The position numbers were made by a program, and so were the translations under genes. Shown piece after piece: positions 12,711 through 48,153 of a DNA stretch of 64,000 bases. The stretch lies in NCBI GenBank assembly GCA_977862235.1, contig OZ374564.1:682001-746000 (forward strand), written 5' to 3'. How positions within the stretch are numbered: the stretch's first letter is position 1; the number at the start of each line of letters is the position of its first letter. The stretch is from Dudresnaya verticillata (lineage: Eukaryota). The notes below the pieces were generated by a model. The model saw only the letters and a list, made by a program, of their open reading frames with translations, was not told where the DNA came from and did no database searches.

Positions 12711-13409
12711 TTTTTGGCTCGCAGACTTGGCAAAACACACAAACAATCATTCCCAGGGAACTTTCGACGTGTCAAAGCCGTCGGTCATCTCGTACATTCG
12801 GACATTGTCGGTCCAATTCAGATGCCCTTCCCCGACCGTTTCCCCTATACCACAACATTTCTGGATGATAAATCCCGTTTCTCGGTCTTGGTATGTATAA
12901 GAAGCCGCAGTTTGCTGACAGCGGCCTCTGGTCAAGCTTCAGCAAAGTTTATCGAACTTGGAGGATCGGAAATAGCTAAAATTCACTCTAACAGGGCTGA
13001 GGAGTATTTGGCTTCCCGGAAAGATTTGGGAGGAGTTGGAGATAGTGGTAAATACTTCTCCCCACCGTATACTCCGGACTTCAATGGAATCTGGGAAAGG
13101 GTGAACCAAACTATGCTTGAAGCTGCCTTGGCTCTGCTGATCCAGGCTCATTCACCGAGATATTTGTGGCCATTTGGGCTGAAGCACGCCGATTATGTGC
13201 GCAAACGAGTAATACACCCAGCCGCTGGGGCTACGCCATACTCGGTCATTACAGGCAATGTTAGTGGTTTAAAATATTTAAAAGTGAGTCAATGGGTTGC
13301 ACACGTCCCAAGGGTCCCACAAAGATCCCACTTCCAGTGTCGTCCGCTTGAAAGGGTTCACATCGAGACTCTTGAACATGCGATCTACAGGATATTGTTC
13401 ACTGACGGT
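12711..13409 (+). pseudogene. Old Copia integrase fragment, left half
   Basis: LGKTHKQSFPG..LVHSDIVGP..FLDDKSRF..PPYTPDFNGIWERVN; clearly homologous to the intact Copia polyprotein at 50890-55212. Confidence 0.92.
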
Positions 13410-13418: not shown

Positions 13419-13440
13419 CACCAGGGGGACAAATCAAGGC
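13419..13440 (+). repeat. Left terminal inverted repeat
   Basis: CACCAGGGGGACAAATCAAGGC, preceded by CA at 13417-13418. Confidence 0.92.
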
Positions 13441-13701: not shown

Positions 13702-14693
13702 TGTTGAGGACATGGTCGCTGGCGCCTCACGTCAGGGGTCAGGTACCCTAGATGGTACCCTGGCACGCTTTCACCAAACTTTCCGGAGACGACAGCCCTT
13801 TTTCCGGGCTTCCAAAATCACGGCGCATTTAGGCCTTTTGCAAAAGCAACGTGAAACGGGCTTCTGATTGGTTGTTACAAACCGCCTCCATGGTCTATAT
13901 GGCTTACAAGTGTTGTGCTGGAATTGGCGGTTATAACAGGAACGGCCAAGTGGAACGATCTGATTGGACCACATGAATGCACGTGGTATGGCATGGAATG
14001 GTACTGGTATGACGCGCACTGTACTCCACAAGTACATATGAACGTGCCATGCAATGTGCTGATGGCGTCTGAGTTGGTACTGCAGGGACTTGCGCTACGT
14101 GGAGCCTGGCTTGTGATATCAGCAGATGCAGTTGTCGTGCGGTCGACACGTTGGTTTACAGTTGCCACGTAGCTGTCGTGCGGCCGACACGTTGGTTTAC
14201 AGCTGCCACGTAGGCAAATCTGGGTGATTACGTGGTCAATGATCCAAGTTGGATATTCATGGACGGATTTCAGCTCGTAAGTGCGGCCACGTGGTGTGCA
14301 GTGTTGTCCGACAGCAGCCATGCGGGGACACTCGATACTTTCAAGTTCCCGCCCAAAGTTGGAGTACATATGAATGGCAGGAAATGCGGTCGCAAGAGGG
14401 ATTGCTGATGTCAGCAGTTAGCAACACTGGTGTGCAAGTTCCCGCCCATTTTGGTGGCGGATGTGAGTGTGCTGAGAGTATGATTTGGTAGATTTAATTG
14501 CTTTACTTTTTCCCGCCCATTTGATGATAGGGATTTTGGGCGTTTCTTTAATGATTTGTTTTGTTTGTGTTCACGCAGCAACTCATCCGAAAAGCTGATA
14601 TAAGCCATGTCGGATGGTCGACTGCAGTAAACGAAGTCAAGCGACTTCCATTTCTCATCTTGTTCAACTCCAACCTCTCCATATTCCTTTTCA
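13702..14693 (+). mobile_element. Copia solo LTR (992 bp) with TSD GGATT, nested in the giant transposon
   Basis: TGTTGAGG...CTTTTCA; GGATT at 13697-13701 and 14694-14698. Confidence 0.95.
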
Positions 14694-16785: not shown

Positions 16786-16918
16786 TACGCTCTGACCGCC
16801 ATGACATCACACAGTAGCTGCTCCCATTATGGCGGGAAACACGATCTCAGAAAGGAAAGAATGTGAGTCCTACGGATGAAGGTGCCCGTCTTTCTGACCC
16901 AAAACATGAAAGGATAGC

Positions 16919-19185
16919 TTGGCTTCTACAACCACGAAAGGTTATCGGCATAGACATTTCCAATTGAGCTTAAGCTCACGTTCTGCAAAACGTTCAGTAT
17001 CATCTTCACTCATACTGGCAAGTCGCGCCAACCTTGGAAGCCTATATCTCACAACCGATATGTTGGCAGAAACTTCAAGGTCCGCCATGGTTGCATCAGC
17101 TGCTCAAGAGCAGAATGGGATCAGGGTAGGTTCTGGTACGATGAGCACGCAGGTACCAATCCAGAGCGGGGAGCCTGGCTTCGGAGCGAATTGCGCAGAA
17201 GACTTACGTGGTGGAGGTATGCGGGCACTGGTTCCAGACGTTAATGCCAACCTACAGGTTGCTTCTGTTGTCCGACGTGAGTTACGTGAAATCAAGGACT
17301 TTATCAATACCTCTCTAGGTTCGCTGAAGAAAGAAGTGAAAGAGGAAGTGCAGAAGATATCAACAATTTCTGATTGTCTGAAGGATGTCATGAGCAATGT
17401 TAACGTTTTGAATACGCAGCGCAGACATTCACGCAAGGATGGGTGCACGGGTAAGCGCAAGAAGCAGGAGCAGGAAGAAGAAGTTAAGATAGAGAAGATG
17501 GAACAAGTAACTGGTCTACCTCTCATTGCAGATCGTGTTCGACTGACGTGGACCATTTTACAAACACTGAATGCCAACCTTTCTTCAGATCTGAGTTCCG
17601 CTGTGGACCTTCCGTTTAACGCTTCCGATATCTCCGCTGCTAATGAATCTGGAAGAGAATGTGAATCAAGCGTTATTCCGACCTTTCCTGCGTACCTATT
17701 CTCGAGGCAGCGCATTGACACGAAGAAGAAGCACAAGTCGTCAATTGCCAGCAGGGCAAGGGAACTTTACTCCGAAATGATTATTCGTTTGGTTTGGTCT
17801 TCGAGGGCCGGAAATCTTTGTTCTTCGTCCCATATCCCGGTCGAGATAGCCCACCGCATACGTCAGTTGCTATGCCGGAATGGCTGTACGTCTTCTTTCT
17901 TCGGTCTGCAAGGAGGGCGACTGGAAATTCTAGACTTGGCTGTGACTCGATTGATCTTGTCGGTAAAAGCACAGACACAGTTCCCCTGGACATGACGGGT
18001 CGGCTGACGAGCGGCCTATCAAGGACGGAGTTGCAGCATGCTCGCATATTTGAGAAGAGAGCAATGAAAGGACAGGTTGATCAAGTGCTGAGGAGAGCTC
18101 ATGAAAGTAGGGAGGAAGGGCATAAGCGCGCTCGAGGAGATCCGCTACAGAATACTGTTTCTAAGAGTGCAGAGGCTAAGAAGTATTGGAATTTGGAGAA
18201 GACATTCACGGGTGGTATTGATCTTCTACGAAAACACACTGCAAGGGTCATCAACACTGGAAGAATGGCTGCCCGAAACGTCATTTTTAAGTCCTTCGGT
18301 TTCAACCTTGCATACCTTGAGGAGAACGAGGCAATCGTTTCAGATGAGTACGGAATTCAACTCGCCCCTCTTTCCTCGGAGGAAGAAGAGTTCTATACTT
18401 CCAAGATCAGTTTGGAAACTGTTATTGGTACAGCTTCTATACTAGAGGTAGGGGATGGGGAGACGGAAATTGAAAGCGTGGACACGACTAACGAAATCCA
18501 GTTCGGTAACCTTCAAAATTCCTTCCCCTCATTAACTATTAGTCTGTAGTATCAAGCTGTGTACCGAGAGAAAGGACGAGCAGGTCGGTTGTCGGGAACC
18601 GCTCCGGTAACAGAGCAAAAATGGACGCAATACGAGCAGGTATCTCTTCATGCAGTTGCACTTCGTGTCTTAATGGAGGCTTCGCGAGCAGAGGGTATGG
18701 CGAACGTTTTGCGGTCCACAAAGCTATCTCTGAGAGCAGTGCATGCTCTAGCGCTGACCTTTCGTGCCATCATTGCATCAGAACTTGGAAAGAATGTGAA
18801 CAGAATCGAAACGTTTCTCTTAGGATCAATAACCTTGCACACTGTTGCACGTAAGGATGAGAGTGGGGTAAGAAAGTCTCAAGATGGTACCGGCGATGGA
18901 AATCGTAGTGGTCGTTTGCGAGCACAGGACGAAGAGGACGAAGATGTTTTCCCCGGTCTGATGATCTTGGACAAGGACAAGATCGGATCCAGGTTGGCGA
19001 ATAGGTTTTCACGTTCAAAGGCAGAATACCATGATCATCTGGCAAAGGATAGAGTTGAAAAAGAGAGCCAAGACCGAGAAGAGACCTTCCATAACAGTTG
19101 CGCAAGGGACAGTCTTATCGCAAACTATGAGGAAGAGGGGATCCATATTCTGGAAGAAGACGAGGAGCTGGACCCATTCTTTTGA
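16919..19185 (+). pseudogene. Cargo gene 1, unknown ~700-aa protein with predicted coiled coil and acidic tail
   Basis: ORFs 16919-17995, 17794-18549 and 18559-19185 join via one frameshift (~17850) and one in-frame TAG (18547). Confidence 0.65.
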
Positions 19186-19498: not shown

Positions 19499-20895
19499 GA
19501 TAAAAACAATTCTTCGGACTGGAATCATTGACCTTGCAGAGCTAGAGCTAGCTGTCGACATTGTTCGGCAATTAAATTTCCTACATTACCGAACTGAGTC
19601 ACTCCTAAGAAGATTTTCTATCCTACGTTACCGAAGGAATGCATGTCATGACGATATCCTTACTTCAAGTTTTCGAAAGGACGAACTCCTATGACGACGC
19701 CCTTTCTTACGTTGGAGAAAGGTCGACTTTATTTGAGACCGTCCTTTCCTATATCTCGAAAAGGATGTAGTACCCTGTGACGATACTGGTCGTTACATAT
19801 TATACCATGTACACTGTAAAGTATTCTTCATCGTGTATAGAAAGGAACATGAATTCTGGTGACGCGACAACGCGTTGTAGTCTCCTAGGTTTCGGAAAGG
19901 ATGACGATCTACAACAATGACAACGTCCTTTGCTACGTTTCAAAAAGGTCGACCTTAATTATATTTAGTAGTCCTTTCCTATATCTAGAAAGAATAAAGT
20001 GCTCTGTAACGATTCCTTTTCATAGGAAAGGGAATCGCAATGGTGGTATAGAAAGGGGCATGAATTGTGGTGACGAGGTCCTTTCCTTGCTCTCGAAAAG
20101 GATGACTATCTACGACGATGTCCTTTCCTAGCTGCAGAAAGAAAGATGTATATGTAAACGTCGTACGGACGTCCATTAACGTATTTATTCTTACATTTCG
20201 GGAAGGATCAATGCCTGTGACTATGGCTTTCCAGAAAGATATGGTCATGGACACGGTATGTGTACAGGAAAGGATATCGAAACATCATGATGCATCTCAA
20301 GATCAAGCATAATCTAGGTTATACTTCAGGTGAATTCTGTCGAAAGGACGCTGCGTCCTGGTGATCGATCACAAACTGCAGTTTGTAGGAAAGGGTATGC
20401 CCCTTCCTACTACAGTATAGATTATATTACTATAACGATAAATCTGTGCTGAAAGGATGAGTCACTACCGGAACGTATTTTCTGTCAGAACAAACTAAAA
20501 GATCTTATACTTTCGGAAGGACATTGTCTATGCTCGACGTACATCTAGCGTGAGCCTAGGCTTTGTGCAACACCAATTAACATTACACAACATGTTAACA
20601 TTTCTAACATTACCGAGAGGTTTAAGTTTTGTGAAAATATCCTTTCACACTTGCGATGCCGAGAAGACCGCGGTAACGCGTTTATGCCTAGGCGTAATGT
20701 CAAGCTCGACAATAACTATTTCCTAGAAAAGGAAAGGATCCGGAATGGCTGCTGCCGGGAAACAGCTGATTTTCGCTAGCGGAAGGAAAGGTACTTACTC
20801 AACTCGTAAAAGAAGTTAGTCAACTCGCGTCTCCCAATGACTCCTATAAAAACGTACTTTACGGGTTCTTTTTACTTCTCATAGTGATACTATGC

Positions 20896-23800
20896 TTAGT
20901 ATGAGTCGGTGTCGGAGTCCTGATCATTGTCATCGTCACTTTCTATCGTTACTGTACCCTCATGCTTACGTTGAATATCAGCAGGTGCAGCAGGTTTCGT
21001 CCTATCTCGAGGAACGTATCTGTTCAAGGGGAAAACGGGTGGAAGGTTCTCGTCATTGATCCGCCATGGAAAGTCGGGATCCTTGACTGACCACAGCGAG
21101 TCATGTAGTGTCGAACCGCTGCGTACACAATACGCATGTCCTCGAATGTTCACCGGGACGCCACGAACTTGGCACATATACAGATATCGACGATAGTTGG
21201 AATAGACGTCTTGACTGCTTGTGAGAGGATACGGCGAATAACCGCCACATCCGAAAGCCAGCTTGTTCTCCTCTCCACTAGCGCCTGCATGGCCGGTGTC
21301 CCCTCGAATGAGGAGGAGGCTGTACGGCGGAACAGTAACGAGCCTCGATGGCATGTGCCGAATCATCTGCCTCCTAGCCTCATCACTCAGAGTGTTCAAA
21401 ACCTTGTGCGAGCCCGGCCACATCCGTATCGCGAAAGGTTCGGCACCGGAGAACATAATCGTCAAATGGAGCATCTCTGGTGCGATTCCATACTTCTTCT
21501 CAGGCTTGTTCTCTCCAATCACACAGGGCATCCACCCTGGAGCTGGTATCATAAAGTCTGTGTGGCATCGTTGGGGAACAACGGCATCCGATGTGCAGAT
21601 CAATTGGCAGCCTCGCAACGGAATTCGCAACGGCTCTTCCCTATCCTGGAGTCCTGCATACTCCAGGTATAGCGCCAGGAAGAGCTCCAGCGCACTTGTT
21701 CTTGAATAATCCTTGGACCACGACCTTTCCTGAACTGTTATCCTCGGAAGAATCCGCCATTAGGGAATCGCAGAACATGTGCGCAGTAGATTGGAAGCGA
21801 AAGTTCTTCGCGGCCTCGTCCTTGTCCTTTCTCAGGACTTCTGCGATCTCCGTCGAAACCCTTGCAGTATCCTGCTCCGAGTTCGAAGTTATGATGTGCC
21901 ACCAGTTGTCGATATCATTCGGATCACGGGTGTTAGACTCCGAGAGCTGTTCTTCCAGCTTCGCAAGCATGTGTTTCATAACCGAGTCGACACATGCGGG
22001 TATGATGCCACTACCAGTTCGGGCCATGAAATGACGGTCGACGTAAAATCCATCTCTGTGAAGACACTCACGGAGGACGTTGAAGTGCGACTGCTGCCAG
22101 CGCTCGAAACGACTCGAATCCGACATGCTTGACTGCGGTTTATAACCGCACTGATAAGCCGATGAACTTGCTGTCCTGATGGAACGCCTAACCTCCTTCA
22201 CATCTTCCTCCCCCAGCACGATATTATGGGGCGCCTCCGCTGAAATTGCAGAAATGTCTTTGAGACGAAGTTCTTCTAGCATGCGAGCTCGCGGGAGGGC
22301 TGAGAGTTGTTCTTCAGTCATGGCATGGGGGTCTTGCCTGCAAGCCGAAATGGTATCCTTACGCGAGTAAAGAGAACTGTACTCATTCCAGACTGCTCGC
22401 AAGTGGTCCTTTGCGGCTCCCCTCCTTTCCCTCTGTGAAGCCTCCCTGTAACGAGAGAAGGGGACCTTGCGGTGGCTTGCTCGGATGCTGTAAACCATCC
22501 TTCCCTCCTCATCCTGCTTCTGGAATTCTGCAGGACCTGAACCGTTGTTCTCAATCGTTCCAATCTTCGGAAACCGCGAATCTTCTCGACGCTGATCTGG
22601 TGCCCGGTTGCGTCCCGCTTTCGAAACCTGCAGGTAGACATTCTTTGGGGCCACGGGCTCCACCACGTCTTCTGAGGTCTCCACACCGCTCGGCATATTC
22701 ACAGAAGGCTCTGGATGGGAGGGGTTCTCTGCTCTCTCAACCGGTACTCCAGACTTAGCAGGGGTACTACCGGACCCAGCGCTCGAGCGCATGCGCTTCG
22801 GATTTTCTGCAGGAGATGAGGAAAGAGAGCTGCGGCGGCCGGTACGTCTCCTGATAGGGCTGTCCTTTCTCCAACCTGATTGATTGGAAGAATTCTGGAT
22901 TTCGGACAGCTCACTGTCGTCCTTTCCGCGAGTAAGGACAATGTCCGTATCTTTCCTCACACGGCGCCTGGCACCACGAGCGGCGCGGCTTGCGAGGCGC
23001 GTGGCGTGCTCAGGAGTATCCTGTTCATTTACGGCACGCTCAGGAGGGGTGCTTGATGGCGTACCCCGGGGTAAGGACGGCCGTCCTTTCGCGGCACGCT
23101 CAGGAGGGGTGCTTGATGGCGTACCCCGTCCTTTCGCGGCACGCTCAGGAGGAGTGCTTGACGGCGTACTCCGTCCTTTCGCCGCGCGCTCAGGAGTGGT
23201 GCTCGAGTGCGTGCCCTTTCCTTTCGCGGCCGCGCCGGAAGGGCCTCTTGACTCTGTATCCTGTCCTTTCGCGGCACGCTTAGGAGGGGCGCTTGAGTTG
23301 GTATTCTTGTCATTCGCGGTAGGATATGAAGGGCTACGTAAGGCTTCTGAAAACCCTGTGTTAGGATGAAACGTTTCCTTGCGCAACTTCCCCAGAACGG
23401 AAGTTATGTATGCCATCTGTTCATTGAAGACTTCAAACTCGTCGTAAAGTGATGTGTGCTCCAAGGGCCATGACATTGCAATGGAAGATGCTCTGAAACG
23501 TTGCTCATCAACTTCAAAATGTTGAACAGCAAGACGAGATGAAAGAGCATACTCCAGACCGATGAAAGGATCTGATAGCAGATCGCTGGTGCCGTTCTGG
23601 TCAGGACGTGATCGGGGACTCTCGATTCTTACGTCGAACCATAAGCTGCTGAAAGACGTAGCATCAGGCCATGCCATTCGGAAGCTGCGTTCAGCAGCAT
23701 CCATAACTTTGGCTACAACGCTGATGAGGCGACCAATCTTGTCGGCGCTCCAAAGGTTGTCACCTTGTATACCAAACTTTTCTATGTAAATAGACCGGAA

Positions 23801-24844
23801 ATCTGCTGCACGCATGACGCAGAGTTTTCTCTCGTAATCGCTGAGCGACTGGAAGGCATGATCCGCAAGCACCGAAACGACGTAAGCGTTGCAACCTCTT
23901 GTTTTGAGAATTTCCTTCACATGGGCCATCAACTTTGGGGAGCCATCGGCGATGAGGGAAATGGAAACTGTGAGCCAGGCAAGGCGTTCCTGCATGGGCA
24001 TGTCCTTGAACATGTATTCATTTCCATTTCCGTCGATGCCCAAGTAGACCTCTTCTGCCGCGAACTCTTCCAAGATACCGACCTTGTCATCTTCATGAAG
24101 AAAGGACAAGGTTGCTGTGCTCGTATCGCTAGTCCTGTTGCTGATGTCTTCCAATAGCTTCAGAACTTTCGTGGACAAAGTCCCGTACGGCTTGTGATCC
24201 TCGTGCAGAAAGCGTTCCAATCCCCCAAGTATTTGAACTACGGCCCTAGCCTTTCTTTTCTCTGGAAGTCTCGCCAGTGAAGATTGAAGAAGTTCTTCGT
24301 CGGTGGGGATACCAGCATCGTCGGCATACAAATGATCTTCGTGCGTAGCTGACACGGGAGGATCGATAAACGTCACACGTCGACCTTGTCCCGTCCAACG
24401 AGACCCTGCCGCACGTGCGCTTCCGGAAGCAGCGGGTCGCGACACAGGGTCAGAGTCCTGTGCATCCGCCACTGCAGTTTCAAGGTCGACGGACGATGAC
24501 GCTCCACCCTTTGCAGGGAAAACCGGGGGGCGGTCCGCACTGATGAGCGGATGGTCTTCTCCAGCGACGGCTTGAAGACCTTCTTCAACCACTTCGCCAT
24601 GCGGCGAGCTAGTCACCAGCGTCTTTCTGCTGGTCTGCGGCTCTTCATCTCCTATCTCCTTGAGATTAATCGGCTTTCGAGCGAGTCTTCTCTTGACGCG
24701 AGGACTTTTGGAGCTCTTCTTGATCGCTAGAAGCCTGTCTTCACCGCGCTTCATCCTCTCCTCGTATTCCAGACCCTCCTTGGCCGGGTCATCCGACGGC
24801 TCTTCGTTGACTGGACTGATGCCTAGCCTTCGCTTCTTCACCAT
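20896..24844 (-). pseudogene. Cargo gene 2, ~1300-aa protein with C-terminal PhyH-like 2OG-Fe(II) dioxygenase domain (one frameshift ~21700)
   Basis: LHRDGFYVD (PhyH-type N-terminal motif) in ORF 21641-24844; QRCHTDF (HxD), MWPGSH and LLLIRGDTGHAGAS (distal H) in ORF 20896-21630. Confidence 0.72.
23030..23290 (-). repeat. Coding tandem repeat, ~45-bp unit (GRGTPSSTPPERAAK) x ~5
   Basis: Unit CCTTTCGCGGCACGCTCAGGAGGGGTGCTTGATGGCGTACCCCGT is visible on the + strand. Confidence 0.88.
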
Positions 24845-25728
24845 CCTTCCAAAACTTCTCGCGACGCGATGTGCCCTCCGGCAGATATGCGCACTCGAGG
24901 GCTGTGGCGCGCCGGCCGTGCAGAAAGCCTTGTTCGCGGAACGCTAGAGCGTGCGTCGGTTGATGGTATTAAAATACCGGGTCCCTGGCGTCAACACGTA
25001 CAGCAGGCCTGTCGAGCACCAGCGCAGGGAGGTCGGTGCTGCGGTAGTGATTCTACCGAGGCGAGTAGGGGAGTGGACAGGGAAGAAGGATGACGGTGAG
25101 CGCCGAACGGAGCAGGGAGGAGAAGATGTGGGTGGCGGCGCGGTGAATGTGTGTCGGGCACCTCGGTAGTGCGGTGACCGTATAGTCCTGGCCTGAAATA
25201 GGCCTTCAGAACCGTGAAAATACCAGCTTCTGTACGATGATGAACGCGCGTTCTCAACGGCAACCAGAGTTCCGGCGGAAAAGATGCGCTGCGGGCGGTT
25301 CCTCGACACGCACATGGCGCTTCTGGTTCCGCCCAAAGAATGTTTTTTTTGAGCCTTTCTTGGACTCTGACCTTCAGATGCGAAAGAGAATGCCTAAACA
25401 GTGGCCCTACAGCGCGCATGAAAGGTCTAATATGCTGCAAATGTATTGGACGTTGAGACTGTAATGTAAAAGATCCCAGTTTTCATTCATGGAGCGGACA
25501 CATGAAGGTGTTTATGTAAGCACCCACTTCGTGCGACATGGCCTGGTACGCGCACGGGTGGGCTGGGCCATTTTGACACATCCTTGCACAGACAATGATC
25601 AGTGTTGGGTATCCAGAAGTAAACCATGCTCACTCAAATGTAAGAAGATGGGAAAGGACAGCAATCCAATAACAATGGTCCTCTCTCAAGAGGAAAACAT
25701 GGCAGTTTGTGATGAAATGAATGTTCTC

Positions 25729-25789
25729 AGTTCGGAGAAGCGGAATCAGTACTGATTCGGAATCAGTACTGATTCCGCTTTTCCGAACT
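25729..25789. other. Near-perfect 61-bp palindrome containing two AATCAGTACTGATT palindromes
   Basis: AGTTCGGAGAAGCGGAATCAGTACTGATTCGGAATCAGTACTGATTCCGCTTTTCCGAACT. Confidence 0.85.
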
Positions 25790-25869
25790 TCGCTGAACAT
25801 GATCCGCGGATGCGCTTTCCGCTTTCCGCGGAATGCGCAGATTTCTCTAACAAGATGACAACCTGTACA

Positions 25870-26110
25870 GATGAAAGGACGACATTCACTGATGAAAGGA
25901 CGACATTCACTGATGAAAGGACGACATTCGCTGATGAAAGGACAATATTCAGTGATCACTGAAACGACGAAATTTAGTAATGAAAGGACGGCCTTCAGTA
26001 CTGAAACGATGAAACGACGAAATTCAATGATGAAAGGACGGCCCCTAGTGCTGAAACGACATCGTTTTGATGATTAAATGCCTTCCTCAAGTGAGGAAAG
26101 GACGATTTTC
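25870..26110 (+). repeat. 21-bp tandem repeat GATGAAAGGACGACATTCACT (4 clear copies plus degenerate ones)
   Basis: Directly visible, no spacers. Confidence 0.9.
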
Positions 26111-26293: not shown

Positions 26294-29200
26294 CTAAACC
26301 CCATCTCTAATAATGTTCTCATCACGAAGTCGATAAAGCTTGCCCTTGTTCCCCTTCTCTGTAAACCACGGGTACTGGTCGAAATGACCTCCTTCTCGGG
26401 TAAAAGCAATTTCCCCGTGGATATTGAGGGATAAGTCTGCTTTGCCTGACGGAATGAAAAGTGTTTTCGGGTGCAAAGTTGTGTTGCTTTCCACGGCAAG
26501 GGAGTATTGGTGTTCACGAGCCAATCCATGAACTAATCGCAATTCAGACGCACTGGGTTCCATGACCGTGAGGTCGCCACGAATCACCATCATGCTGTAT
26601 GGTGGAATTACAACAAGCCGCGAAGCAACACAGCCAAGCATAAGTTCCCTAGTCTTCTTGCACTTCGTGTTTCGGTAGATATGTGATCCTGGCCACACGC
26701 GCAGTACCGTGGGTTGATGGCCAGTGAACTTAACTGTGACGTTTGAGATAAACGGCGAGTCCGCATACACGGGCAACCTCGGCGAGGAGTACTGACTCCA
26801 GTCAGGAGTCCAACCAGGAGGAGGCGGCGCAAACTTCGTGTGGGGGAATGTCCGCATGAAACTGCACCCCATGCTGATGAGATGAGATCCATTCAAAGGC
26901 ATGTACATATGGTTATCATCGAACTGAAGGCCGAGGCTGGAAAGGAAGGATGCTATGTCGACTGGGCACTTTCGCAAGGTCGAAAGCGGTCTGCATGAAA
27001 CACATGTAAGTGTCAATTGTGGAACTCAGACCTCCGCCGGCACCTCTGGAAAACGCGCCGGAGTCAATTACAAACCCATCGCCTTGAAGGCGTTCGTGCA
27101 ATACACGGAAATGGCACCTGCTGTTTTCGGTTCCGGCGTCCACATGCCAACCTAGTACTCGCTTTCCAGCCATGTTCTTCAAAGGAACATCCATATCACT
27201 TCCAGCAAAGAGTATTGCCATGTTGATCTGAGCAATGTCGTTCCACTCTAGGTAGTTGCAATATCGTGACCTTTCGTTGATCCCAACTGGCAGTATTTCA
27301 ATACCCCCCACTTTCATCGCAAATGGGTTGAACAAGGCACGGTCGATGGCAACAGGGGTGTTTTGATTTTGCGATTCCCGAATCTCTCCTTCTTGAACGA
27401 CTTGGAAAGGTCGATGATATGGAGCGAGTGGCCTTGACACTACGAGTTTCATCCCTGCCTCTTCAAGAAGCTCCATATCCCGATCTGCAAGACGTTCAAG
27501 ACGTTCCCCTGACACGGCATTGTCACCTTTATGCAAGGTCCTGACTCCACGAATTTTGCGCCGCGCTGTAGGGTTACGAGACTCTGGAGGGCTCTCCACT
27601 TGCTTGACAACGTTCAGGCATGAAGACCCATCATCACCTTCACCATCAGTACCATCTGACACCCTATTGTCTGATCCTTGCACGCCTGCATCGAATGAAA
27701 GGTCCACTTCCGGCAAGTCGTCCAAACTCTGTGCGGGAGAGTTTTCCAATGCGGGTGAGTTGGAAACCGATTTTTCTTCCACTACACCCTCTTCCGCGGG
27801 CTGTGGCAGGCGACGTGATCCCTGAGCTTCTGTCCCTCTCATTGCCCCAGGGGTTGAAACGATCGTTTCAACTTCTTGATTCCTCCCGTTTCCAAGAGGA
27901 GCGACATCAAAAAGCTCTGTAGAATTGTCTTCTCCCGGTATTTTTTCAATGTGCTCGGTTGACTTCAGAAGTCTCCTTTCCTCATCACGCTTACGTCGCT
28001 CACGTTCCTCACTTTTCGTAAGATGCTCCATATCAGGGTATAACTTTCTGAACATCGCAGTGATTCGTATGTCAACAGAAGTGTCGGAAGCACCAGAATC
28101 TGATTCTGTGTCTTGCTCGAGATATTCGACTAGCTGTTGGTGGCTTTGCTCCATCAACCTTTCCCTCTGCTTTCTTCGTAGCTCTTCAATCCCTTTCGAT
28201 GGGAATGTCTTCATCGCTCGAGGCTTCTTACGACGACGTCCCTTGGTAGCCCCTTCTTTGTTTATAGCGGCATATCGCAAAAGTTTTTCTTGTTCTTCCT
28301 GCGACATTCTCTTGACTGTCCTTCGCATACCTCTCGGATTGCTAACCTCACCTTCTGTTATTCTTTTCCATACTTCGCTAGCTGTTTCAATCTGGGGTGA
28401 CCTCGACCGTCCGGCAGGCCTGCGCAAGGTTGGAACTGGACGGTCTTCTTGTTCAGAATCGCTAGTAAAGATCACCGGAGTACGTCGATCTCGCTTGCGC
28501 TTCCGTCTCTTGAGCTGTACGGTACCTTCTGATGGTTACTGAAGTCTATTCCCTTTAGATGGTGAAAGGATGCTTTCCCCGTCATCTTGTTCTTGGGATG
28601 GTAAAACAGTGCCTTCCCCATCAATGATGATATCTTGTTCTTGATTCGACCTTTTGTCATATCGACCTGTTGATCTAAGAACGCGATGTGAAGTACGATG
28701 TTGACCTTTCCCTTCGTGGACATGCAATTCATTCGTGTCCGCATGGGGTACATCCTTGCACTGACTTCCGGAACCGGAATCAGCAGGTTGGGAAGCAGTA
28801 CTTGAAGTATCCTTTCCGATGTTGCCGTGAGGGGTTTGCACATTGCTGCTGCGCTCAACCGGCTGCTGAACAGTAGCGTTACCGTTGGATCCTCGTTGGG
28901 ATACAGGTGCACCTGCGCTCCGTCCTCGGCTTGTTCCTCGGTTCCCCTTCGACGCACCAACACTATTACCTCGATTGCTGGGAGTAGCTGCCTTAGAACT
29001 TCGTCCTTTCTCCAAACCCTTCTCAGCTTGGCACTCTTGCGTCGCTCGTCTCCCTACTCCTCCAGCTGCCTCACCGTCGACCTTATATTTATCGCAGTCG
29101 CTTCTCATGGCTTTGGATAATATGGCCGGCAAGACAATGCCTTGTGCAGTCCAGACCTCGTCATTGCCGCCATCTGAAAGCGAATCCTGTTGGACAATGA

Positions 29201-29918
29201 GTCGTGGGATTGCCCTTTCCATCAAAGCCTTCAGTTGTATCATTTGGCTTTCTTCCGCTCCGTTCGATGAAGCGTCGGCCGTTTGGGAGAGTTCCAGACT
29301 TTTGCCTATTTCCGCAAGGATGCCAAGTATACCACCATCAATATGGGCAGGACCCATTCTGAACTTGCCGTTCACGCAAATGCGATTGCGAACTTCATTT
29401 CGCTCGTGTAGGATCTGGTTGCAGTGCTCGACGAGGCTCTTAATTGACTCAACGAACCGTCGGACGAACAAAGCCTGCCATTCCTTTTTGCGATTTTCCG
29501 ACCTTTCCACCATGCACCTTGTTGACGTTGCGAGCAGCACGGCAATCTTCTCAAGACTGCCGCAATCGTGGAATTTGTGGCACTTGAACAACTCATACAC
29601 AATCGCGAAGCCGTCTTCGCATTCGACTAACCGCATGTAGAGATCAAACGCCCGCTGCATTTCTTCGCCAACCATGGAATGCGCTGTATCGAAGTAGATG
29701 CTCTTGGTGGTACGCGACGCTGTATGAAAACCCAGATTCACTTCTTTACCCTCGACAACAGCCTTGATAGGGCCCACTTCGCTTGCAAACAGATCGTATA
29801 GCTTGGACTTGTTATCCAACTTGACTTGAAAGGATCGGAAATTCCGAGCATGAAGAAACTCGCGCAACATCCTTATAACCACGCGCTTCATTGCGTTTCC
29901 ATGCTGCGTGCGCTTCAT
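26294..29918 (-). pseudogene. Cargo gene 3, ~1200-aa paralogue of gene 2 with a catalytically degenerate PhyH-like domain
   Basis: ORFs 28536-29918 and 26916-28475 are in one frame (single TAA); frameshift ~27020 into 26294-27016. LQGDGFVID, FPHTKF, VWPGSH, IPPYSMMVIRGDLTVM align with gene 2. Confidence 0.72.
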
Positions 29919-31089
29919 TGTCCAGCAGAGTTACAGGGACCGGCTTGATAGGACAGGTTGATCGCTTGAGATGGAAGTATATTGACGAGGGGAAGCAGCC
30001 TCCCAAGTGAGGGTAAGACTGTGTGAATAGCCTTCAAGGTCCGGCTCTTGCGAAGAAAGGTTGGAGTCAAAACTCCACACGCCTGTGTGGGGAGCGTAAT
30101 GCGCCTTGCCGTGGCACCGCGGACGCGTGAAAGCGGCGAAAGGAGGTTATGAGAGGCGCTGAAGAACGTCTCCCCTGCCGTCGCCCTTCTCGCCAACTCG
30201 GGTGTCGGACAAACGCAACACCGCGAGCCGTTGTTGCGATTCTCTTCAATCTGGCCTTTTGGCCTTTCGACGATGTACCACGGCCTTTCGATTTTCGCAA
30301 AGGCTCGTCGACAGATCTGTGCTGGAGCACCGGGCGCCGGCAGTGCGCTGATATTGTTCGCAAAAATATGCAAAAACGAGTACATCTGCCGTACAGTTGA
30401 CAGCAGCTGCTGTAGTAGTACAGTGTACACTGTGCGTTGGCAGCTTTGCGATTTGAAATGTCGCCCTTCCGTTGGCGCTGTCGACAGCGTATTACAGCGA
30501 ACAGGGTTCGGGCAGAAATGTGGGTTGCAGAGGCTTCCGATTCCGGCTGGCCCATCAGTGGCCAGCCGCTTCGCAGGCCTGTACAACGACATGGACACTC
30601 TGCATGCAAATGAACAAGTACTATTTTTGATTGAAAATGCAAACGAACCCTAAGTGTCTCCACCGCTCGATACAGGTATTCACGTGCATGCATGCACTGC
30701 AGTGCGATTAGAACGGGACATGTCCGACCTCATATGCTCTCTCTGGGGAACGCGCCCTCGTTCGCCATGTGATATCTTGGACGTACTCCCCAATATTATA
30801 TATAAAACCAATGGGCCAAAGGCATTTGGACATATCTGCATGGCGCAAGACTACCGAATGCATCCAGCTTCTCACCCACCCTTCTTCCGCCTCTCGAGCG
30901 CGTCCAGAGCCCAAAATGTACCTAGGGCTGCTCCAATGCATCGGATGCGTATTGGATGCGTTGGATGCAGATGCATTGGATGCGCATCGCGGGCCCGAAG
31001 CAGGGCATTGCGTACTAACCGTCAAGAATCTGGAGTCTTTACGGCTGCAACCGTACCATGGTACACGGAGAGCTCTATCCAATTTTGTT

Positions 31090-32080
31090 AACATAACCCC
31101 ACTGAAAGGATGTGATTTGCATTGCTCATAAATGTACTGAAAGGATGCGATTAGTACAATATTGAACAAATGCACTGAAAGTCACTGCGAGGGTGATCTT
31201 GTTAAGTATACTGACTCACTACAGTGCATATAGTATACTATATATAGTGAAAGGAGACACTGCAGTGCGTTTACGTAATGAAGTGTAACCAGAAATTGGT
31301 TGTTGCAGAACAGAAAGGATGAACTGGAGTTCCAAAGAAGATATATATCTATCTAGACATATCTCCAATTTATCGTTTCATATGATAAATTCGGTACTGG
31401 TATTGAACCTTTAGGAAGTCTGAAAGGGTGAATTGAATTCAATCTACCCTTAAGGGTACTAAGGAGATGATAACATATGTTGTAAGAAACGAAAACAGAA
31501 TGGACTGCAACGAATTGAGCAGAGGATCCTTTCAGTAGTAAAATCTTTATAAAGACTATAGTCTTAGTCCTTTCAGTACTGACTATATTCAGTTACAACT
31601 ATAGCCGGACTATAGTCCTTTCAGTATTAAGTGCTGAATAACACTTTAACACTGGTCCTTTCGGTATACTGAATTCAGCCTTGGTCCTTTCAGAATGAAT
31701 ATCCTTTCAGAAGGACTAATACTGAGTTCAATACTAGTCCTTTCGGTACTAAAGTATTCTTTCAGGGCCCTGGCTCTTAAGAGTCTGAAATGTCAGTACT
31801 GAGGGATGAATTCGAAAGTACTAGTAAGACATCTAACTGAAGTGCAGTTCTTTTCAAGAAAAGAACTGCAGTTAAGTTCTAAATGGTTACAATGACAGAC
31901 TTTTTTTGGCCACACCTTTCACCCCGGTGCTTTCCGAAAGAATGTGATGATTGGTTCTAAGAACATGATCACCACTGGCCAGTACGTATACGTACTCTAT
32001 AGTGAATGTTTCAGTACACTGAAAGGATGGACATCCCGGGAGACCAAGGATGGCCTCCGGGGGACCTATCCTTTCACATG
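31090..32080. repeat. AT-rich spacer between divergent genes with many (C)TGAAAGGA / TCCTTTCA(G) motifs
   Basis: Repeated GTCCTTTC(A/G)G at 31525-31745 and CTGAAAGGA at ~31102, 31138, 32020. Confidence 0.75.
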
Positions 32081-33121
32081 TGAACGAATTTCCATGAAAC
32101 TAGTGCATGCCAGGAATAAACAATTGTCGACAACCTTTGCCCGGGCATGCGCGGGCAGGTATGATATTGTAGCATATGCTAAACTTTAGATCGACTGGGG
32201 TCGAGACACCATTTCCGGGGACATCGTCCACATGTCGTTGCAACGCACATCGTCGTTGAGTCCTCAACCAGATGCATCTCAGCGTCTCCTTCATTGCTGA
32301 CTAGTTAATATTCCTGTCATATTAACACGGCTGCCAGCCAAGTTGAGCCCGGGCTCACAGCGTTGACGCTGTGGCTCGACTAAATTGGGCTCTATGACGT
32401 CAATATATGCACATATGTGCACAGGGTGCCCCGTGAAGCGCTCGTGACGGACATCTCCGATGTAATTCAAAGGAGTAATGGGCATCCAGATCTGATATGC
32501 CAGGTCGCGGCTGCAACCATGCATGGTATGCCATGGCATAAATCACCCAGTCCCACGGTTTCCCGCGCAAAGTTTAGCAGCAGTAAACGTATTCAACGCA
32601 GGATAGTTACTGTAGCGTCGTCGTTTCATTGGACGCAAAACTCCTACAAATCAGTATTGGAAGTAAAAGGTCCTGTCTGCAATCAGTTCCTGCATGTCAG
32701 GACCGGTGCCAGAAACGGTACATCCTTTCTGTCGATGTATTATCAACCTCGATCATGTTCCGGTAATATTTCAGAAGAAAACAACGACGATAGTCGATAC
32801 ACCAGAGGTTTTCAAACCAGGCCGGCCTGTCGACACGGACTAGTGTTGAAAACGGCAACAATTTGGTGCTGCGAGCTTGCGCCGAGGTTTACGATTTCTC
32901 GAGAAATCTTGAGCCCTACAGCGGTACAAAGGTTCTGTTTCTCACGATATTGAAGGAAGAAGTCGAATACAACTCGAGCCGAGTTCCGATCGGGAGGAGC
33001 ATCAATACAAGGCTTTCTTCGTTTCCACCTCCACCGGCGTCGCTGGATTTCAACACGGATCTACCACAACAGCAACGTGTATCGGTCAAGTTCTTGCCAC
33101 CTCTCCAGTGATCGCGAAAGG

Positions 33122-36100
33122 ATGGAATCTCGAATACCACCCCACTTTAATAATCACAGCGAACTCTCCGAAGTTCTATTGGAGCTTCACCGTCGATGGA
33201 CGGGTCCTGATGTTGAAGTCAACAACGAAATTATCACATGTGTGGTATCCACAGTTCAACGCCTTCTTGGCGTGAAAGTTCCCCTGGCGTTACAGCACAG
33301 GTTCACAACGGTTCTTCTTTTCTTTGGGCCCTTACGGATGAGATCAGCACTGTCTAGGTACCCGCATGCCTCGATTTTTAGGATGAAAGGATGGCTTCTA
33401 TTCTCTGTTAGCGAAGGAAAAAGAAGGCTATACAACCTTTCATTCTTGAAAAGACTTGTTCTCGTGGTTAGGGAGGAGACTAGGGGAAGTCCCGCACGTC
33501 CATCTCTATGCAAAGGTTTCGTTCGCGAGTTTGTCCAGATTGATCCTGCCGGCAGAAAGTGCATTCTGACATTCGCGGTTAACCTTCTGGGAATTCTTTC
33601 CACCATTGAGGACATCTGAAGGGGAAGGAACGAAAACGGAAAGTATGGGCACTGTGGAAACAGAATAATTGGTCTGCAGGAGCCCCTCGACTTCCCGAAG
33701 TTTAGACAGATTGGTCATGGAGTAACATTACTATTCGGATCACCAACATTTGAAGACACTGGGGACCACATCATTGGAAATGTCGGCGTATTGAAGGAAG
33801 TCGAAAAGCTTCTGAAGTGCTTCATGACAGATGTAGTCGCTGGTAAACAGGCGAAAGCGGCTAGAGATTACCATAGGCGATGTGGACTCCTAGAAGGTGT
33901 CTGGAGAGTGACAGACGGAGATATTGGGATTCAATTCGCCACGAATGCAGGAAGACGGATCGGAAAGGAGATTCTTTTAAGACTTCGGACAGCAAAAAAC
34001 ATTGCAAACCCCAATCTCGCACATACGTTCAGCCCTCCATCTGCCTACGCGAATGATGTATGCAGAAAGTCAGCAAGTCAATTCGAAACCTTCCTTCAAG
34101 GGTGCTATTTTGCTATCACAAGTGGTTTTGAAGAAAGTAGCACGAACATGACTAACCTAGGGCTCTATGCGGACCAGTGGGTCCAGAGTGTTTTGCAGGA
34201 GAGTTCTGGGAATTTCAAAGAACACATTGAGGGTAACGTTCGCGCTAGCGCATCCAGGGTTGATGTGAATCAAGATGTTTCGATACCGCTTCACAAAGAA
34301 GGGCGTGTATACGAGCATCCTTCCACTCCTGCAAGTTTCGCAGCACAATTTACGGCCCACCAATTGGCACCTAGAGGGCCATTTCATTTTGGACAACCAC
34401 CGGTTCCGATAATTGCACCACAGCCTTTCAGTAATATTGCTGCTGGTTTGTGCAGCCATCCTTGCATTGGAAATTCTAGTGTTCATCCTTTCATCATGGA
34501 GGATGTCGACTACTGCATCGGCCAGAACTACGATAGGAACATGGAAGGGCAAGGGCCAGCGAAGCAAACAGTTAAGATGTCAACATTGCCGATACGGAAT
34601 GATGGACAAGGTTTCCTTCAACAATTCGTTGCACCGCCTTCTGAGAATGACATTTTTCCTGGTGCTCGTCATGTCCGATTTACCGGACCGCATCGGGAAA
34701 CTCTTTTGATCGCCAGTGAGTCGAGTTCAAGTGGTCTCTCCTTCATGAAGTCTGATTCGCATTTCCGGACGCAAGGATGCAACTCACAGCTCGATCTGTG
34801 GATACCTAGCGCACCGGATCTAGGTGACTGCATTGTTCCCATCGTGCCATGTCGAGAAATCTGTGCAGATACTGATCCCCTCACATTTTTATGCGATGTG
34901 GCTCTGGGAGAAACGAATCCACTCTCAAATCTCTGTGATACCGCCCTTTCAAACGAGTTCTCTCTTAGTTGTAAGATTTCAGACAGTGAGTTCCTTCGCG
35001 ACAGGACTACGACCTTTACTGGGCAAGGACATCGATTTCCTTGCGCAGTAAATGATAATGTATGTTCATTGGGCCATTCTTCAACAGGCGAACACATTGG
35101 AAGAAGAAGTCCCATCATGCCAAAAGCATTTGATGCTGTCGATGATATTCAAACTGGTGGAAATACAGATGGACAGCGCAATTTTGTTACACAACAGAGC
35201 CCCCACGATATGTTGTGCGACAGGGCGGAGGTTGCTGATGATACAAGCCCAAATATGCAGACTAATACATGCAATTCTGCAAGGATGCTTACTTCTTGTG
35301 AACAAACAAGAGATTCTGCTGCAGGCAAGGACGAAACCACACCAACGGGACAGGATCTGTCGCATCCTTCCCCACAAGGACGCCACAAAGGTTCTGATTT
35401 GACATTCCCAAGCAGTATCTCCATGCAAAAAACTATTCAGGAGCAGAATAAACAGACCAGTCATCAGGCCCAAAAAGAGGTGAGTGTTATGCATACTCAA
35501 TCGGGACGACGCTCAAGGCAAAACCTCCATTTGTCCGCAGCAGATCCAGGTGAAGATGATGCCCCATATCCAAATGGGCCTGCATTGGGTGTCTGCAAAA
35601 CTTACTCTGAGTCAGGAAAGGGCGTAAAACATTATCCTTTCCCAGTATTTGCGAAACATATCCGGGACGGGGATAGGAGGCCAGGAGAGTCAACTAGTTC
35701 CCGCAACAGACTACTGGATACAAGTGCCGATGAGAGGGTTATGTCATCGCTCTCACGATTTGGTAGACTAGAAATCCTGGATGTCCTCAAGGAAAACAAA
35801 ATATCACCAACATCCATCCTGGAAGTAATGGAACTACTGCGGAACACGGACTCCCGCACGAAGGCGCAAGATTTCGCTCAATTGTGGAAAAGAGATATCC
35901 GATACGCCGTCCTGAATATGTTCACGGAACCACCAGGTCAAACTTCGGACGACACAGATGCTGAAAAAAGGACAGGACCGGAGGTGCAAGTCCTTGGAGC
36001 TGGTCGTCGAGGAACACGGAGGATTGTCAGTGTCGCGTTTCAGCACCATGCCAATCTTCGCAAACATGACATGTTCGATGTTCTGATGGAAGGGAACTAT

Positions 36101-37486
36101 ACAAGATGCTTTGTTTCAAGGATATATGACGAAAAGGAGGAAAGGGTGACAATTGCGCAGTGCTTTGCAAGCTGTAAAGTAGACTGGGTGCGTCTGAAAC
36201 GTGCATCGCCTCAACAACGCTTCCGCACCGTCATCAAGAAGAACCTTACAGACGTTTTCAAGAAAATTCAAGCTTTCGATAACATGCACTTGATACAAGG
36301 AATCTTGAAGCAAATCCTTTTGAACGAGAGGGGTCCTGAAAGGCTACCGTTGCTTACTTGGCAAAAACTTTGGGAGCTCATACCTTCTGGTTCTCGAACA
36401 GCCATCAAAAGATTGGGTTCGAGCCCTGATACTACTATCAGGGAACGTCTTCAGGCTGAAATATTAGGTGTCATGTGTTACAACCTTCGCGTCACTAAGA
36501 TGTATCTCCCAAGTTTTCAAATGGGCGAGATATTCTACCTTGTCCGGCACAACTCCGGGTCTATCGCAAAACAGATAGTAGTGGATACAGTCTGCTGCAT
36601 TCTCGAAGGTTTCCCCACAAAAGCAAACATACAAAAGGGGGAGGATTACACAGCAGCCGAACAGACTATCCGCTGGTGTCAAGGAAAGCTGCGCTCTTCC
36701 AGGAGTTCTGCCGTTTCTACAAGTACGAGTTTCTCACAGCAAATGGAATATGGTGAGTCACTTGAAACCTCTGCGACAGCTTGCCTACGAGTTTTGGTAT
36801 TAACCTCATCACGTCAGGAGACAGTTCTCGTCAGAGAATCGTTTTCAAGAGCCAGAGTGATGGCTCATGACCCCCAGCAGAATGAAAACTTTTCCGCACC
36901 GATTCAGTTATACACGGTTACGAGCTGTCGAGAAAGGAATGTTGCCGACGCAAATGACAAAGGGAATACATTCGAGGGAATTCATGTCATCCTGTGCAGC
37001 ATTGAAGAAATTCATGAGCTTCAACGCCTGATGAACCGCGTAAGCAAGAGAAAGAGAGTATGTGTTCCGAGCTTCCGTTCCATAATATTGGTGAACGGGG
37101 ATTACGTTCCCGTCCCAGCCTTCATTCACCTACTCACATTCGCTTCTAGCATCACTGTAGCATTCACACTCTTTGGGATGCATGATGATTCGGCTGAAGT
37201 TGAGGGTGATGTTGAATTTTGGAGAGGAAAGGTTGCAGCAGCGGACCTCTTGATTATGGAAATGATGTGGAATGTTAAAAGCCTCGATATCCGAAGGCTC
37301 GATGCGCGGTTTACCGCCGCAGATATATCAGCAACGGCGGGGCCGTGCGGGCCCGACGATACCATTCCTTCACCGGGCCAAGGGGAACAAGGAAATCTCC
37401 ACAGCGGCCGCACTTCATTGGCCAGGACAAGAGCTATTGCACGCAAGGAGATCGGAACTGCCGTGAGGAGGCGGCTTTTCCACTAA
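33122..37486 (+). pseudogene. Cargo gene 4, ~1450-aa protein with one in-frame TGA (33617); C-terminus resembles a degenerate SF1 (UPF1/SEN1-like) helicase
   Basis: ORFs 33077-33619 and 33791-37486 are in one frame with no other stop. Ordered remnants IFYLVRHNSGSIAK, VLVLTSSRQETV, VILCS, FRSIILVNGD, FTLFG echo SF1 motifs I, Ia, Ic, II, III without catalytic residues. Confidence 0.55.
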
Positions 37487-37739: not shown

Positions 37740-39460
37740 ACCCTTTCCTATAATTCGCATCCATGGACCTGTCCTTTCCTCTCGGATAAGAAAAATAGTA
37801 AAGGACAGAAAAATAGGAAAGGACAACGTCCTTTCAATTGCATGACAGTTATGCTGCTTTGAAAGGGACCAAGGGGCATGATTGAATGGAAAGTCGATAC
37901 TGCTTGGTGTGAAAGGACATAGTCCTTGCTGCTTCGAAAGGACATGATGAGATTGCAAGCCCTTTTTTCCTAATCCACGGATTTTTCTGTCCTTTCCTAT
38001 TTTTCTAATTCATGTGTCGGAAATTATGAAAGGACAGGATAAAGGAAGGGACTTCGTGCTTTCAATTGCTGTCTTACTTTTCCAAGGATCAGAAAATAGG
38101 AAAGGACAGAAAATGACATCGTCCTTTCCATTGCTTCATAGTCATCCTGCGGGAAAAGACATAGTCCTTGTTGCTTCGAAACCAAGTGATAGGACTTGCG
38201 AGTCATTTTTCTCTAATCCAAGAATTTTTCCGTCCTTTTCTATTTTTCTTCCCCATGGATCAGAAAAAAGAAAGGACCGGAAAAAGGAAAGGACGTCGTA
38301 CTTTCAATGGCATGGGCGTTATGCTGCCTGTCTTTCTTATCCATGGCTCAATATTGGCAAGGACAGAAAATTGAAAATGGCCTCGTCCTTTCCGTTGCAT
38401 CATAGTTATTCTGTTGGGAGAACAAATAGTCCTTGCAACTTCGAAACGACATGATAGGACTTGCAAGTCCTTTTTTTCTAATCCAAGAATTTTTCTGTCC
38501 TTTCCTATTTTTCTTCTCCATGGATCGGAAACAAGGAAAGGACAGGAAAAAGGAAAGGACGTCATGCTTTCAATTGTGCATAAGCGTTATGCTGCCTATC
38601 TTCCCTATTCAAGGAATCAAAAATAGGAAAGGACAGAAAGTTGAAAGCTACCTCGTCCTTTCCGTTGCATCATAGTTATGCTGCTGGGAGAACACATAGT
38701 CCTTGCAACTTCGAAACGACATGATAGTACTTGCAAGTCCTTTTTTTCTAATCCAAGAATTTTTCTGTCCTTTCCTATTTTTCTTCTCCATGGATCCGAA
38801 ACGTGGAAAGGACAGGAAAAAGGAAAGGACGTCATGCTTTCAATTGTGCATGAGCGTTATGCTGCCTATCTTCCTTATTCAAGGAATCAAAAATAGGAAA
38901 GGACAGAAAGTTGAAAGGGACCTCGTCCTTTCCATTGCATCATACTTATGCGGCTGGGAAACGACATAGTCCTTGCAACTTCGAAACGACATGAGAGGAC
39001 TTGCAAGTCCCTTTTTCTAATCCAAGAAGTTTTCTGTCCTTTCCTATTTTTCTTCTCCATGGATCGGAAAAAAGAAAGGACCGGAAAAAGGAAAGGATGT
39101 CGTGCTTTCAATTGCATGAGCGTCAGGCTGCCCATTTTTCGAATCTATGGATCGATAAATAGGAAAGGACGCTGTCCTTTCAACTGTTGAGAGTTTTGCT
39201 GCCTATGTTTCTTATCCATATGGCTGCAGCCATGAGAAAATAGGAAAGGGTAGAAAACAGGAAAGGACGTCGACCTTTCCATTGCATCGGAGTTTCGCTG
39301 CTTGTAAAGAACATAATCCTTGCCGCTTCGAAAGGACATGATGGACTTGCAAGTCCTGTTTTCATTATCCATGAATCGCAAAATAGGAAATGTCCGAAAA
39401 ATAGGAAAGACCGTCGTACTTTCAATTGCATGAGAGTTATGCTGCTTGGAAAAGACACAA
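37740..39460. repeat. Tandem array of ~240-270-bp units (~6 copies) rich in GGAAAGGAC/GTCCTTTCC
   Basis: Marker AGTCCTTG(C/T)..CTTCGAAA recurs at ~37921, 38163, 38428, 38698, 38968 and, degenerate, ~39316. Confidence 0.92.
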
Positions 39461-39865
39461 TGCACTTGCATCTCCATGCTGCTTGAAAATGACATGATGG
39501 ATATAACTTGTAACTCTATCATGTTGGTACTGCATACAGAAGCCTATGTAACACAGAATTCTGTATTTTTCAGTCGTCCGCATGCGGCAAGCCATGACTG
39601 CAATACCGATCGTCCTTTCATCGATGGTTGGTCGATCGTCCTTTCTTCGAGGGAAGGACGGACGAAAGAAGTCTTCGGCTTAATTATATCCTAAGACAAT
39701 AACCGGGGAAACACTTTCGAATATTACAACGAATTTGCTTCTGTTAATGATTCAGCATGACCTTTATTTTCATGTGCACATCTACAATCACAGCTCTGGA
39801 TACATTTACCCAGCATATATATGCATATATATATGTGCAATCGATTTGGCGATGATCATCGCCTA

Positions 39866-47738: not shown

Positions 47739-48153
47739 GAGGAGCTGTGGATGTTCCAGGGCTGGGAAGAGTGATGCAGACGGGGTTCGCCGGGAGACGT
47801 TAGAGTATATCTCCTGATCGACTGCAAGGATGATTGCGCAGGATAACTACAGAAGAAGAGCTTTCCATATCATGCTCGCTGAGCCTGAAGTTCGATTGAG
47901 TAGAGAATGAGCCTCCGTGAGATGATTGACCTTAACAAAGGTTTGAGATATACATGCATAACAGCGGTTGGTCAATGTTGCAGAGATGTGCAACCCAGAG
48001 ATTACACATCGGCCGTAAGCGGTAGCCATTTCGGCGCAGTAGTGTCATTACAGACACCAAATCTCTGATATTAGTGATTGTAAAACTCTAAAAATACATA
48101 TCAGTCGTGAAACTGTAATATCAGAACTCTGAAACTGTAAAAAATGTAAATCA

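Follow-up and report, generated by a model that had tools for sequence, protein, structure and literature searches.

A 64,000-nucleotide stretch of the genome of Dudresnaya verticillata (contig OZ374564.1, positions 682,001 to 746,000 of the forward strand; hereafter the window) was found to contain a CMCT (EnSpm/Plavaka-type) DNA transposon that has a degenerate transposase, is inserted in an old Copia retroelement and bears a gene (gene A) whose C-terminal domain is predicted to be a PhyH-like double-stranded beta-helix 2-oxoglutarate (2OG)-Fe(II) oxygenase. Gene A is likely a member, without a ParB domain, of the red-algal PAG3 family of transposon cargo genes. We lean towards the view that the intact form of the protein would enter the nucleus, bind arrays of the 8-base motif GAAAGGAY by way of a helical module and oxidise a methyl mark on DNA or chromatin in the vicinity, so that the element stays active. 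The element also carries a tandem paralogue of gene A (gene B) and three further cargo genes (C, D and E).

The element spans 34,757 bp, or 33,765 bp minus a solo long terminal repeat (LTR), and is delimited as follows:

13419..13439, plus strand: left terminal inverted repeat (TIR), starting CAC, preceded by CA at 13417-13418 and matching the right TIR at 20 of 21 bases
48155..48175, minus strand: right TIR, ending GTG, then CA at 48176-48177 (2-bp target duplication)
12716..13409, plus strand: left half of the split old Copia, matching 53596-52903 at 82%
48179..48573, plus strand: right half of the split old Copia, matching 52906-52511 at 88%
13702..14693, plus strand: solo Copia LTR, a later insertion into the left end of the element, with a 5-bp duplication
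39866..44376, minus strand: CMCT-type DDE transposase in three pieces, with WDGF, ADTP, C(2)C, H(4)H and ERAHQ

The two halves of the old Copia match adjoining parts of an intact Copia in the window, with the TIRs and the CA target-site duplication (TSD) at the cut points; the left junction includes some dozen bases without a match in the reference Copia. The transposase open reading frames (ORFs) had seven relatives at 30-43% identity, C(2)C being kept in six of the seven and H(4)H in four, and scored E 0.019 against PF02992, below the cut-off. C(2)C and H(4)H transposase motifs and CAC..GTG ends have been described for CMCT/EnSpm elements (PMC12730594). The element has the features by which CMCT transposons are recognised, namely CA..TG termini with TIRs, a TSD of 2-5 bp and a DDE transposase bearing both C(2)C and H(3-4)H; by the termini alone, the CAC..GTG ends agree with EnSpm and the TSD of 2 bp with Plavaka. 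In the preliminary description of this DNA gene A had been called transposon-borne, and the TIRs, TSD and transposase bear this out.

Gene A lies on the minus strand and comprises about 1,315 codons, with one small indel at about 21691 splitting the frame:

24844 (ATG) to 21692, minus strand: frame A1, 1,051 codons, with basic clusters, a helical module without a ParB core (about residues 190-500), a disordered linker and the N-terminal half of the oxygenase domain
21690 to 20896 (stop), minus strand: frame A2, 264 codons, with the beta-helix core (H21564, D21558, H21291, R21144) and an acidic tail
23081..23296, minus strand: 45-bp coding tandem repeat, 4.8 copies (15-residue unit), in the gene A linker, containing four copies of the element motif

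The two frames were taken as one gene because a profile of 47 relatives (the 49 described below minus P0031 and P0034) covers both in order, the end of A1 at profile positions 11-108 (E 7e-5) and then A2 at 118-288 (E 1e-50). The nearest relative, P0001, reads FKDKC-MIEV without interruption, whereas in the window FKNKC lies in one frame and LELF, one base further on, in the following one. Since these conserved residues are one base apart, an intron was ruled out and the break was assigned to a small indel, in agreement with the frameshift reported earlier near 21700. A programmed frameshift is not favoured, as the relatives read straight through this point. Decay is likelier than sequencing error, because genes B, C and D and the transposase are broken too, yet a 4.4-kb Copia ORF in the window is open. 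The motifs that had been noticed at the end of this long protein were all located, RDGFYV near the end of A1 and HTD (H 21564, D 21558), WPGSH and GDTGHAG (H 21291) in A2, where NIRGH (R 21144) also lies, and the repeat linker was found as listed. As read, the frameshift leads to a stop before any catalytic residue, and the window copy of gene A cannot make the enzyme; the metal triad that had been called intact is thus present, together with its Arg, only in a frame that is unreachable past the frameshift. The supposedly K/R-rich start was likewise upheld in part, in that two local clusters (KKRR at 3-6, KRR at 51-53) exist but K and R together make up 0.15 of residues 1-190, no more than in other parts of the protein (0.12-0.18).

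The oxygenase domain of gene A has the H-x-D...H metal triad and the distal Arg that mark PhyH-like 2OG-Fe(II) oxygenases. When A2 was searched against 1.84 billion representatives, 49 relatives were obtained at E <= 0.001, the best being P0001 (1e-47); word-indexed homologue searches using A2 and A1 residues 200-500 gave no matches. No Pfam or NCBIfam family matches the domain in the window, no Pfam family names it in any of the 49 relatives, and Pfam PF05721 (PhyH) has no above-threshold match in the window or in 49/49 relatives. In the ESM Atlas, 29 of 30 matches to the window's own A2 carry PF05721 (best 0.94). With the predicted model of P0001 (41% identical to A2; pLDDT 82, pTM 0.85), the top Foldseek matches were SnoN, KanJ, SnoK, SptF and AndA (E ~5e-7 to 6e-6), structures of the SnoN, KanJ and AndA type being PhyH-like enzymes. 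VIA-align comparison of the same model with 48,161 chains placed TlxIJ (Z 14.9, root-mean-square deviation (rmsd) 2.9, 202 aligned) and KanJ (Z 14.6, rmsd 3.9, 217 aligned) at the top, TlxIJ, KanJ, AsqJ, AviO1 and AndA being near ties; protein prolyl hydroxylases scored Z 11-13, PHYHD1, whose human form is presumably entry 2OPW, Z 11.9 (rmsd 3.8, 195 aligned) and PhyH Z 11.2. Among the best 50 rows listed, no TET/JBP, AlkB or JmjC entry is named. The solved structures closest to the model are only 6-14% identical to it in sequence, and a comparison with a viral library returned generic PhyH and 2OG oxygenases, again at 6-14% identity, one of them named AlkB. The beta-helix fold that had been proposed for gene A is therefore the one predicted for P0001 by both structural comparisons and indicated for A2 itself by the Atlas. 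The VIA-align matches also include, in row 14, a subunit of RESC, the RNA-editing complex of trypanosomes (8fnc_14; Z 12.8, rmsd 4.6, 225 aligned), and the same fold is thus present in a nucleic-acid machine.

Gene A has in common with KanJ, SnoK/N, AndA, TlxIJ and PHYHD1 the predicted fold, the triad and the distal Arg, and differs from them in its 6-14% identity, in lying below Pfam detection, in being transposon-borne and in its fusion to a long, putatively nuclear N-terminus. It could be supposed that gene A is an ordinary host metabolic PhyH gene that was recently captured and is passively decaying, since in the window copy neither A nor B nor the transposase is intact. This is very improbable and already largely refuted, given that PhyH is matched by neither the window nor any relative, that the solved structures are so distant, and that the long multidomain layout of the relatives matches a published transposon family (bioRxiv 10.1101/2025.02.11.637652). 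Moreover, the nearest relatives carry no metabolic gene names, which supports the preliminary description on this point. No loci of the relatives were found in metagenome contigs or viral contigs.

The preliminary description had tentatively taken gene A for an independent recruitment of a further dioxygenase family as a nuclear, anti-silencing enzyme; such a recruitment, with the idea that the enzyme modifies its own element, is already in print for red-algal PAG3. In Bostrychia, Plavaka (EnSpm) elements of 17.4-19.1 kb with three accessory genes were described; PAG3 consists of a ParB-like N-terminus and a putative 2OG oxygenase, stands beside inverted-repeat arrays, occurs also in Bangiophyceae and has 2OPW as its best HHpred match, and it was proposed to bind and modify its own element, with the ParB core as the proposed binder (bioRxiv 10.1101/2025.02.11.637652). 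The same self-modification proposal was made for a ParB-methylase cargo gene in a brown-algal transposon (PMC12477816). Gene A resembles PAG3, for which self-modification has been proposed, in being cargo of a giant CMCT element, in its C-terminal 2OG oxygenase, in the inverted-repeat arrays that lie adjacent and in that most copies are degenerate. It differs in that it has no ParB core, that two tandem paralogues are present here, one of them catalytically dead, that no PAG2 methylase/SET gene is recognisable, that the element (about 33.8 kb net) is nearly twice the published length, and that a defined 8-base motif is spread over its whole length. Because the N-terminal ParB-like domain is missing, gene A was filed as a variant and not as a canonical PAG3; it was compared by architecture. 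Pyropia relatives with the PAG3 layout match at E 2.8e-8 and 1.2e-7. Of the 26 oxygenase clusters only two name an organism, Pyropia yezoensis in both cases, with adjacent locus tags (P0059 and P0073; I4F81_012918-012920), which suggests tandem PAG3-like genes there too; both cluster representatives keep the triad. Distant as they are, these relatives make a red seaweed the probable host.

In the literature searched, no paper on red-algal PAG3-type oxygenases was found besides the Bostrychia preprint, whose Fig. S13, Table S6 and journal version may list ParB-less or dead copies. Neither the ParB-less form, the dead twin nor the defined motif was found in that literature, preprint supplements lying outside its scope, and the part of PMC4738411 available holds nothing on this oxygenase family. 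The core idea is known, and these three features, none of which appeared in the preliminary description, are among what differs from published PAG3.

A ParB-like N-terminal region was recognised in 11 of the 16 relatives longer than 800 residues (10 by a DGxHR-type motif, 1 by alignment), with one weak GmrSD_N match among the relatives. The DGxHR motif is absent from A and B, and the profile of the ParB group scores A1 at E 0.19. The helical module is common to A, B and the 5 of 16 long relatives that miss the ParB motif, and a profile of these five ParB-less relatives scores B at E 4e-15 and A at 5e-4, ahead of every other ORF in the window. The paralogue is situated as follows:

26294..29930, minus strand: gene B, tandem paralogue of A, with the same helical module, one stop (about 28536) and a frameshift with about 55 profile positions missing (about 26975-27000)

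Gene B shares 29% identity with A over 215 residues; where D, H and R would stand it has H-x-K, V and H, lacking both the triad and the Arg. Its catalytic loss probably predates its decay, because only two frame lesions occur in 3.6 kb. The frameshifts of A (21691) and B fall at nearly the same aligned position, flanking a conserved KC, probably by chance. TlxI was described as a non-catalytic partner subunit without the 2OG Arg and with a short lid (PMC12141560), and gene B similarly has neither the 2OG Arg nor the lid segment, the absence of which may be damage since its position coincides with the frameshift of B. By analogy, ParB targeting might, in a lineage of giant red-algal transposons, have been replaced by two-component self-marking, in which the active oxygenase and its dead twin would pair as TlxJ/TlxI, dock on the element's GAAAGGAY arrays and set or remove a mark on DNA or histones. 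We regard this as quite unlikely; if true, it would point to a class of chromatin-modifying 2OG enzymes outside TET, AlkB and JmjC with a target motif readable from the element.

Loss of catalysis was followed over the family in an oxygenase-domain tree of 42 rows, from which five short relatives and the A1 fragment were left out (the left-out list of the script names seven ids). The ParB-less rows stand on one side of a weakly supported branch (90/61 with P0040, 83/48 without), and four dead rows occupy three positions, a single clade not being rejected (p-AU 0.067). A triad residue is lost in 5 of the 12 complete ParB-less rows versus 0 of the 30 complete rows outside, seven rows being incomplete, among them P0046, which has Tyr at the distal His. 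As the rows with losses include two long uninterrupted ORFs (P0016 and P0017), it might be argued that the family serves mainly as a binding scaffold or reader, with catalysis dispensable and the triad of gene A a leftover. This is distinctly improbable, however, in view of the retention of H, D and H in every complete row outside the ParB-less group and in 7 of the 12 inside it (37 of the 42 rows that have all three sites), and of the 23 out of 27 conserved columns kept by gene A (14 in gene B).

The motif was chosen from the data as the top 8-mer. GAAAGGAC occurs 77 times in the window versus 2.4 expected, a count reached in 0 of 100 shuffles. Of these copies 76 are inside the element (33.8 kb), 61 of them intergenic, and 1 is in the 30.2 kb outside, a contrast that far exceeds the effect of motif selection; 43 copies are left after five tandem-array intervals are masked. 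A further 37 copies inside the element, and 1 outside, are added by GAAAGGAT. The motif clusters between genes throughout the element, the main clusters being:

19675..20349, both orientations: six motif copies downstream of gene A
25652..26103, plus strand: eight motif copies arranged head to tail (21- and 50-bp repeats), in the interval separating genes B and A
31567..31744, minus strand: five motif copies between genes B and C
37771..39645, both orientations: 270-bp array, 3.8 copies, with flanks, holding 30 motif copies
45111..45640, no strand assigned: hairpins and short repeats upstream of the transposase, with nine motif copies

The model that we favour starts from direct observations on the element ends, the motif enrichment, the triad and Arg, the lack of a ParB motif, the dead paralogue and the broken frame. 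Judged from context, the basic clusters would serve nuclear import, the helical module would bind the GAAAGGAY arrays and the long linker would let the catalytic domain sweep its surroundings. From what is known of the family, Fe(II) would be held by H-x-D...H and 2OG by the Arg, and hydroxylation would proceed via an Fe(IV)=O intermediate; the oxidised methyl mark on nearby DNA or chromatin would then allow the element to escape silencing. As to the substrate, our guess within this model is evenly balanced for a methylated DNA base, weaker for a methylated histone or other chromatin protein, and weakest for RNA or an unmethylated base.

Several points weigh against this model. The closest solved structures presumably act on small molecules, and the fold model is that of a relative, P0001, and not of the window's own protein. 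The ParB core is absent from gene A, whose PAG3 membership rests on architecture. The resemblance of the helical module to the helices downstream of ParB in the ParB-bearing relatives is weak (hhalign probability 12%, P 0.003, 69 columns), and its own model is poor (pLDDT 51), a Foldseek search with this low-confidence model giving no match at E <= 0.001. The transposase or genes C, D or E could bind the motif instead. No PAG2-type methylase or SET motif was found in the element: its long ORFs have no Pfam match to a PAG2-type N6-adenine methylase or SET domain, and nothing plausible as DPPY, DPFxGxG or NHSC was seen in six frames, 166 open frames of 60-99 residues being checked by motif only; a copy that has diverged might escape such a search. 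PHYHD1 was reported to demethylate free 2'-O-methyl nucleosides, and not nucleotides or RNA (PMC12709175).

Some of these points also speak for an active oxygenase that is not targeted by the motif, the arrays being sites for the transposase or a helper and the enzyme hydroxylating an element-encoded protein, RNA or a free nucleoside. Such an enzyme would sit well with the missing ParB core, with the three other cargo genes that are without assignment, with the small-molecule and nucleoside substrates of its PhyH-fold neighbours and with the scores of the protein prolyl hydroxylases. Transposase sites are typically subterminal, however, and here clusters of the motif lie between genes throughout, just a single copy being found in the outermost 2 kb at each end; in addition, in 5/5 long ParB-less relatives the enzyme has remained joined to the basic clusters and the conserved helical module. 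We hold an untargeted enzyme to be unlikely, though it is the strongest of the alternatives.

Oxygenases of a different kind are known from transposons, as fungal KDZ, Plavaka and EnSpm elements carry TET/JBP enzymes for which an escape from methylation silencing was proposed (PMC12730594). Gene A is like these in being a 2OG oxygenase carried by a DNA transposon and unlike them in that its best fold matches are PhyH-like; no Pfam family of any kind, TET/JBP or other, matches it. In the VANDAL elements of Arabidopsis, motif binding and demethylation by VANC were proven by experiment (PMC5735166). The element shares with VANDAL a short motif that is dense in the non-coding parts of one element and amplified by tandem repeats, and gene A shares with VANC tandem peptide repeats in a variable region of a cargo protein; this likeness is one of pattern, no homology being claimed. 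PAG3 is a published candidate for silencing evasion by red-algal transposons, and the window element makes that hypothesis testable by supplying GAAAGGAY as a motif that may be bound, a minimal ParB-free module that may bind it and a natural dead paralogue, with P0002, P0006 and P0008 as intact long relatives. We know of no PhyH-fold chromatin oxygenase, and an activity of this fold on chromosomal DNA or histones, if true, would add a branch to the chromatin oxygenases.

Sequence searches of Pfam, NCBIfam, PHROGs and the PDB yielded no meaningful name for any of genes A-E. The remaining cargo genes are:

32384..37486, plus strand: gene C, a 1,288-codon ORF with two in-frame upstream segments, up to about 1,700 codons with two in-frame stops; no family
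16910..19185, plus strand: gene D, broken ORFs; no meaningful family match
45888..47846, minus strand: gene E, a 652-codon ORF; no family

Gene C had no match in Pfam, NCBIfam or PHROGs, and the Atlas gave no usable match for its residues 700-1250; it may be a binder of the motif or an accessory gene that has diverged very far. The stretch FIEVCW...TWWAALV of gene E is reminiscent of a Tudor-like chromatin-reader domain, with no database match. Near-perfect hairpins of 44-75 bp were seen in the intergenic DNA of the element at 16733-16785, 25729-25789, 31835-31878 and 45357-45640. Beyond the element, the Copia at 49904-57017 contains a gag-pol ORF that is open over 1,454 codons (50890-55254, minus strand); its LTRs are about 97-98% like copies at 7875-8954, 13702-14693 and 48574-49565. 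Nested retroelement remnants are common to both ends of the window (1-12700 and 57000-63000), and an ORF in them (56981-57709) has what we take to be a chromodomain-like motif.

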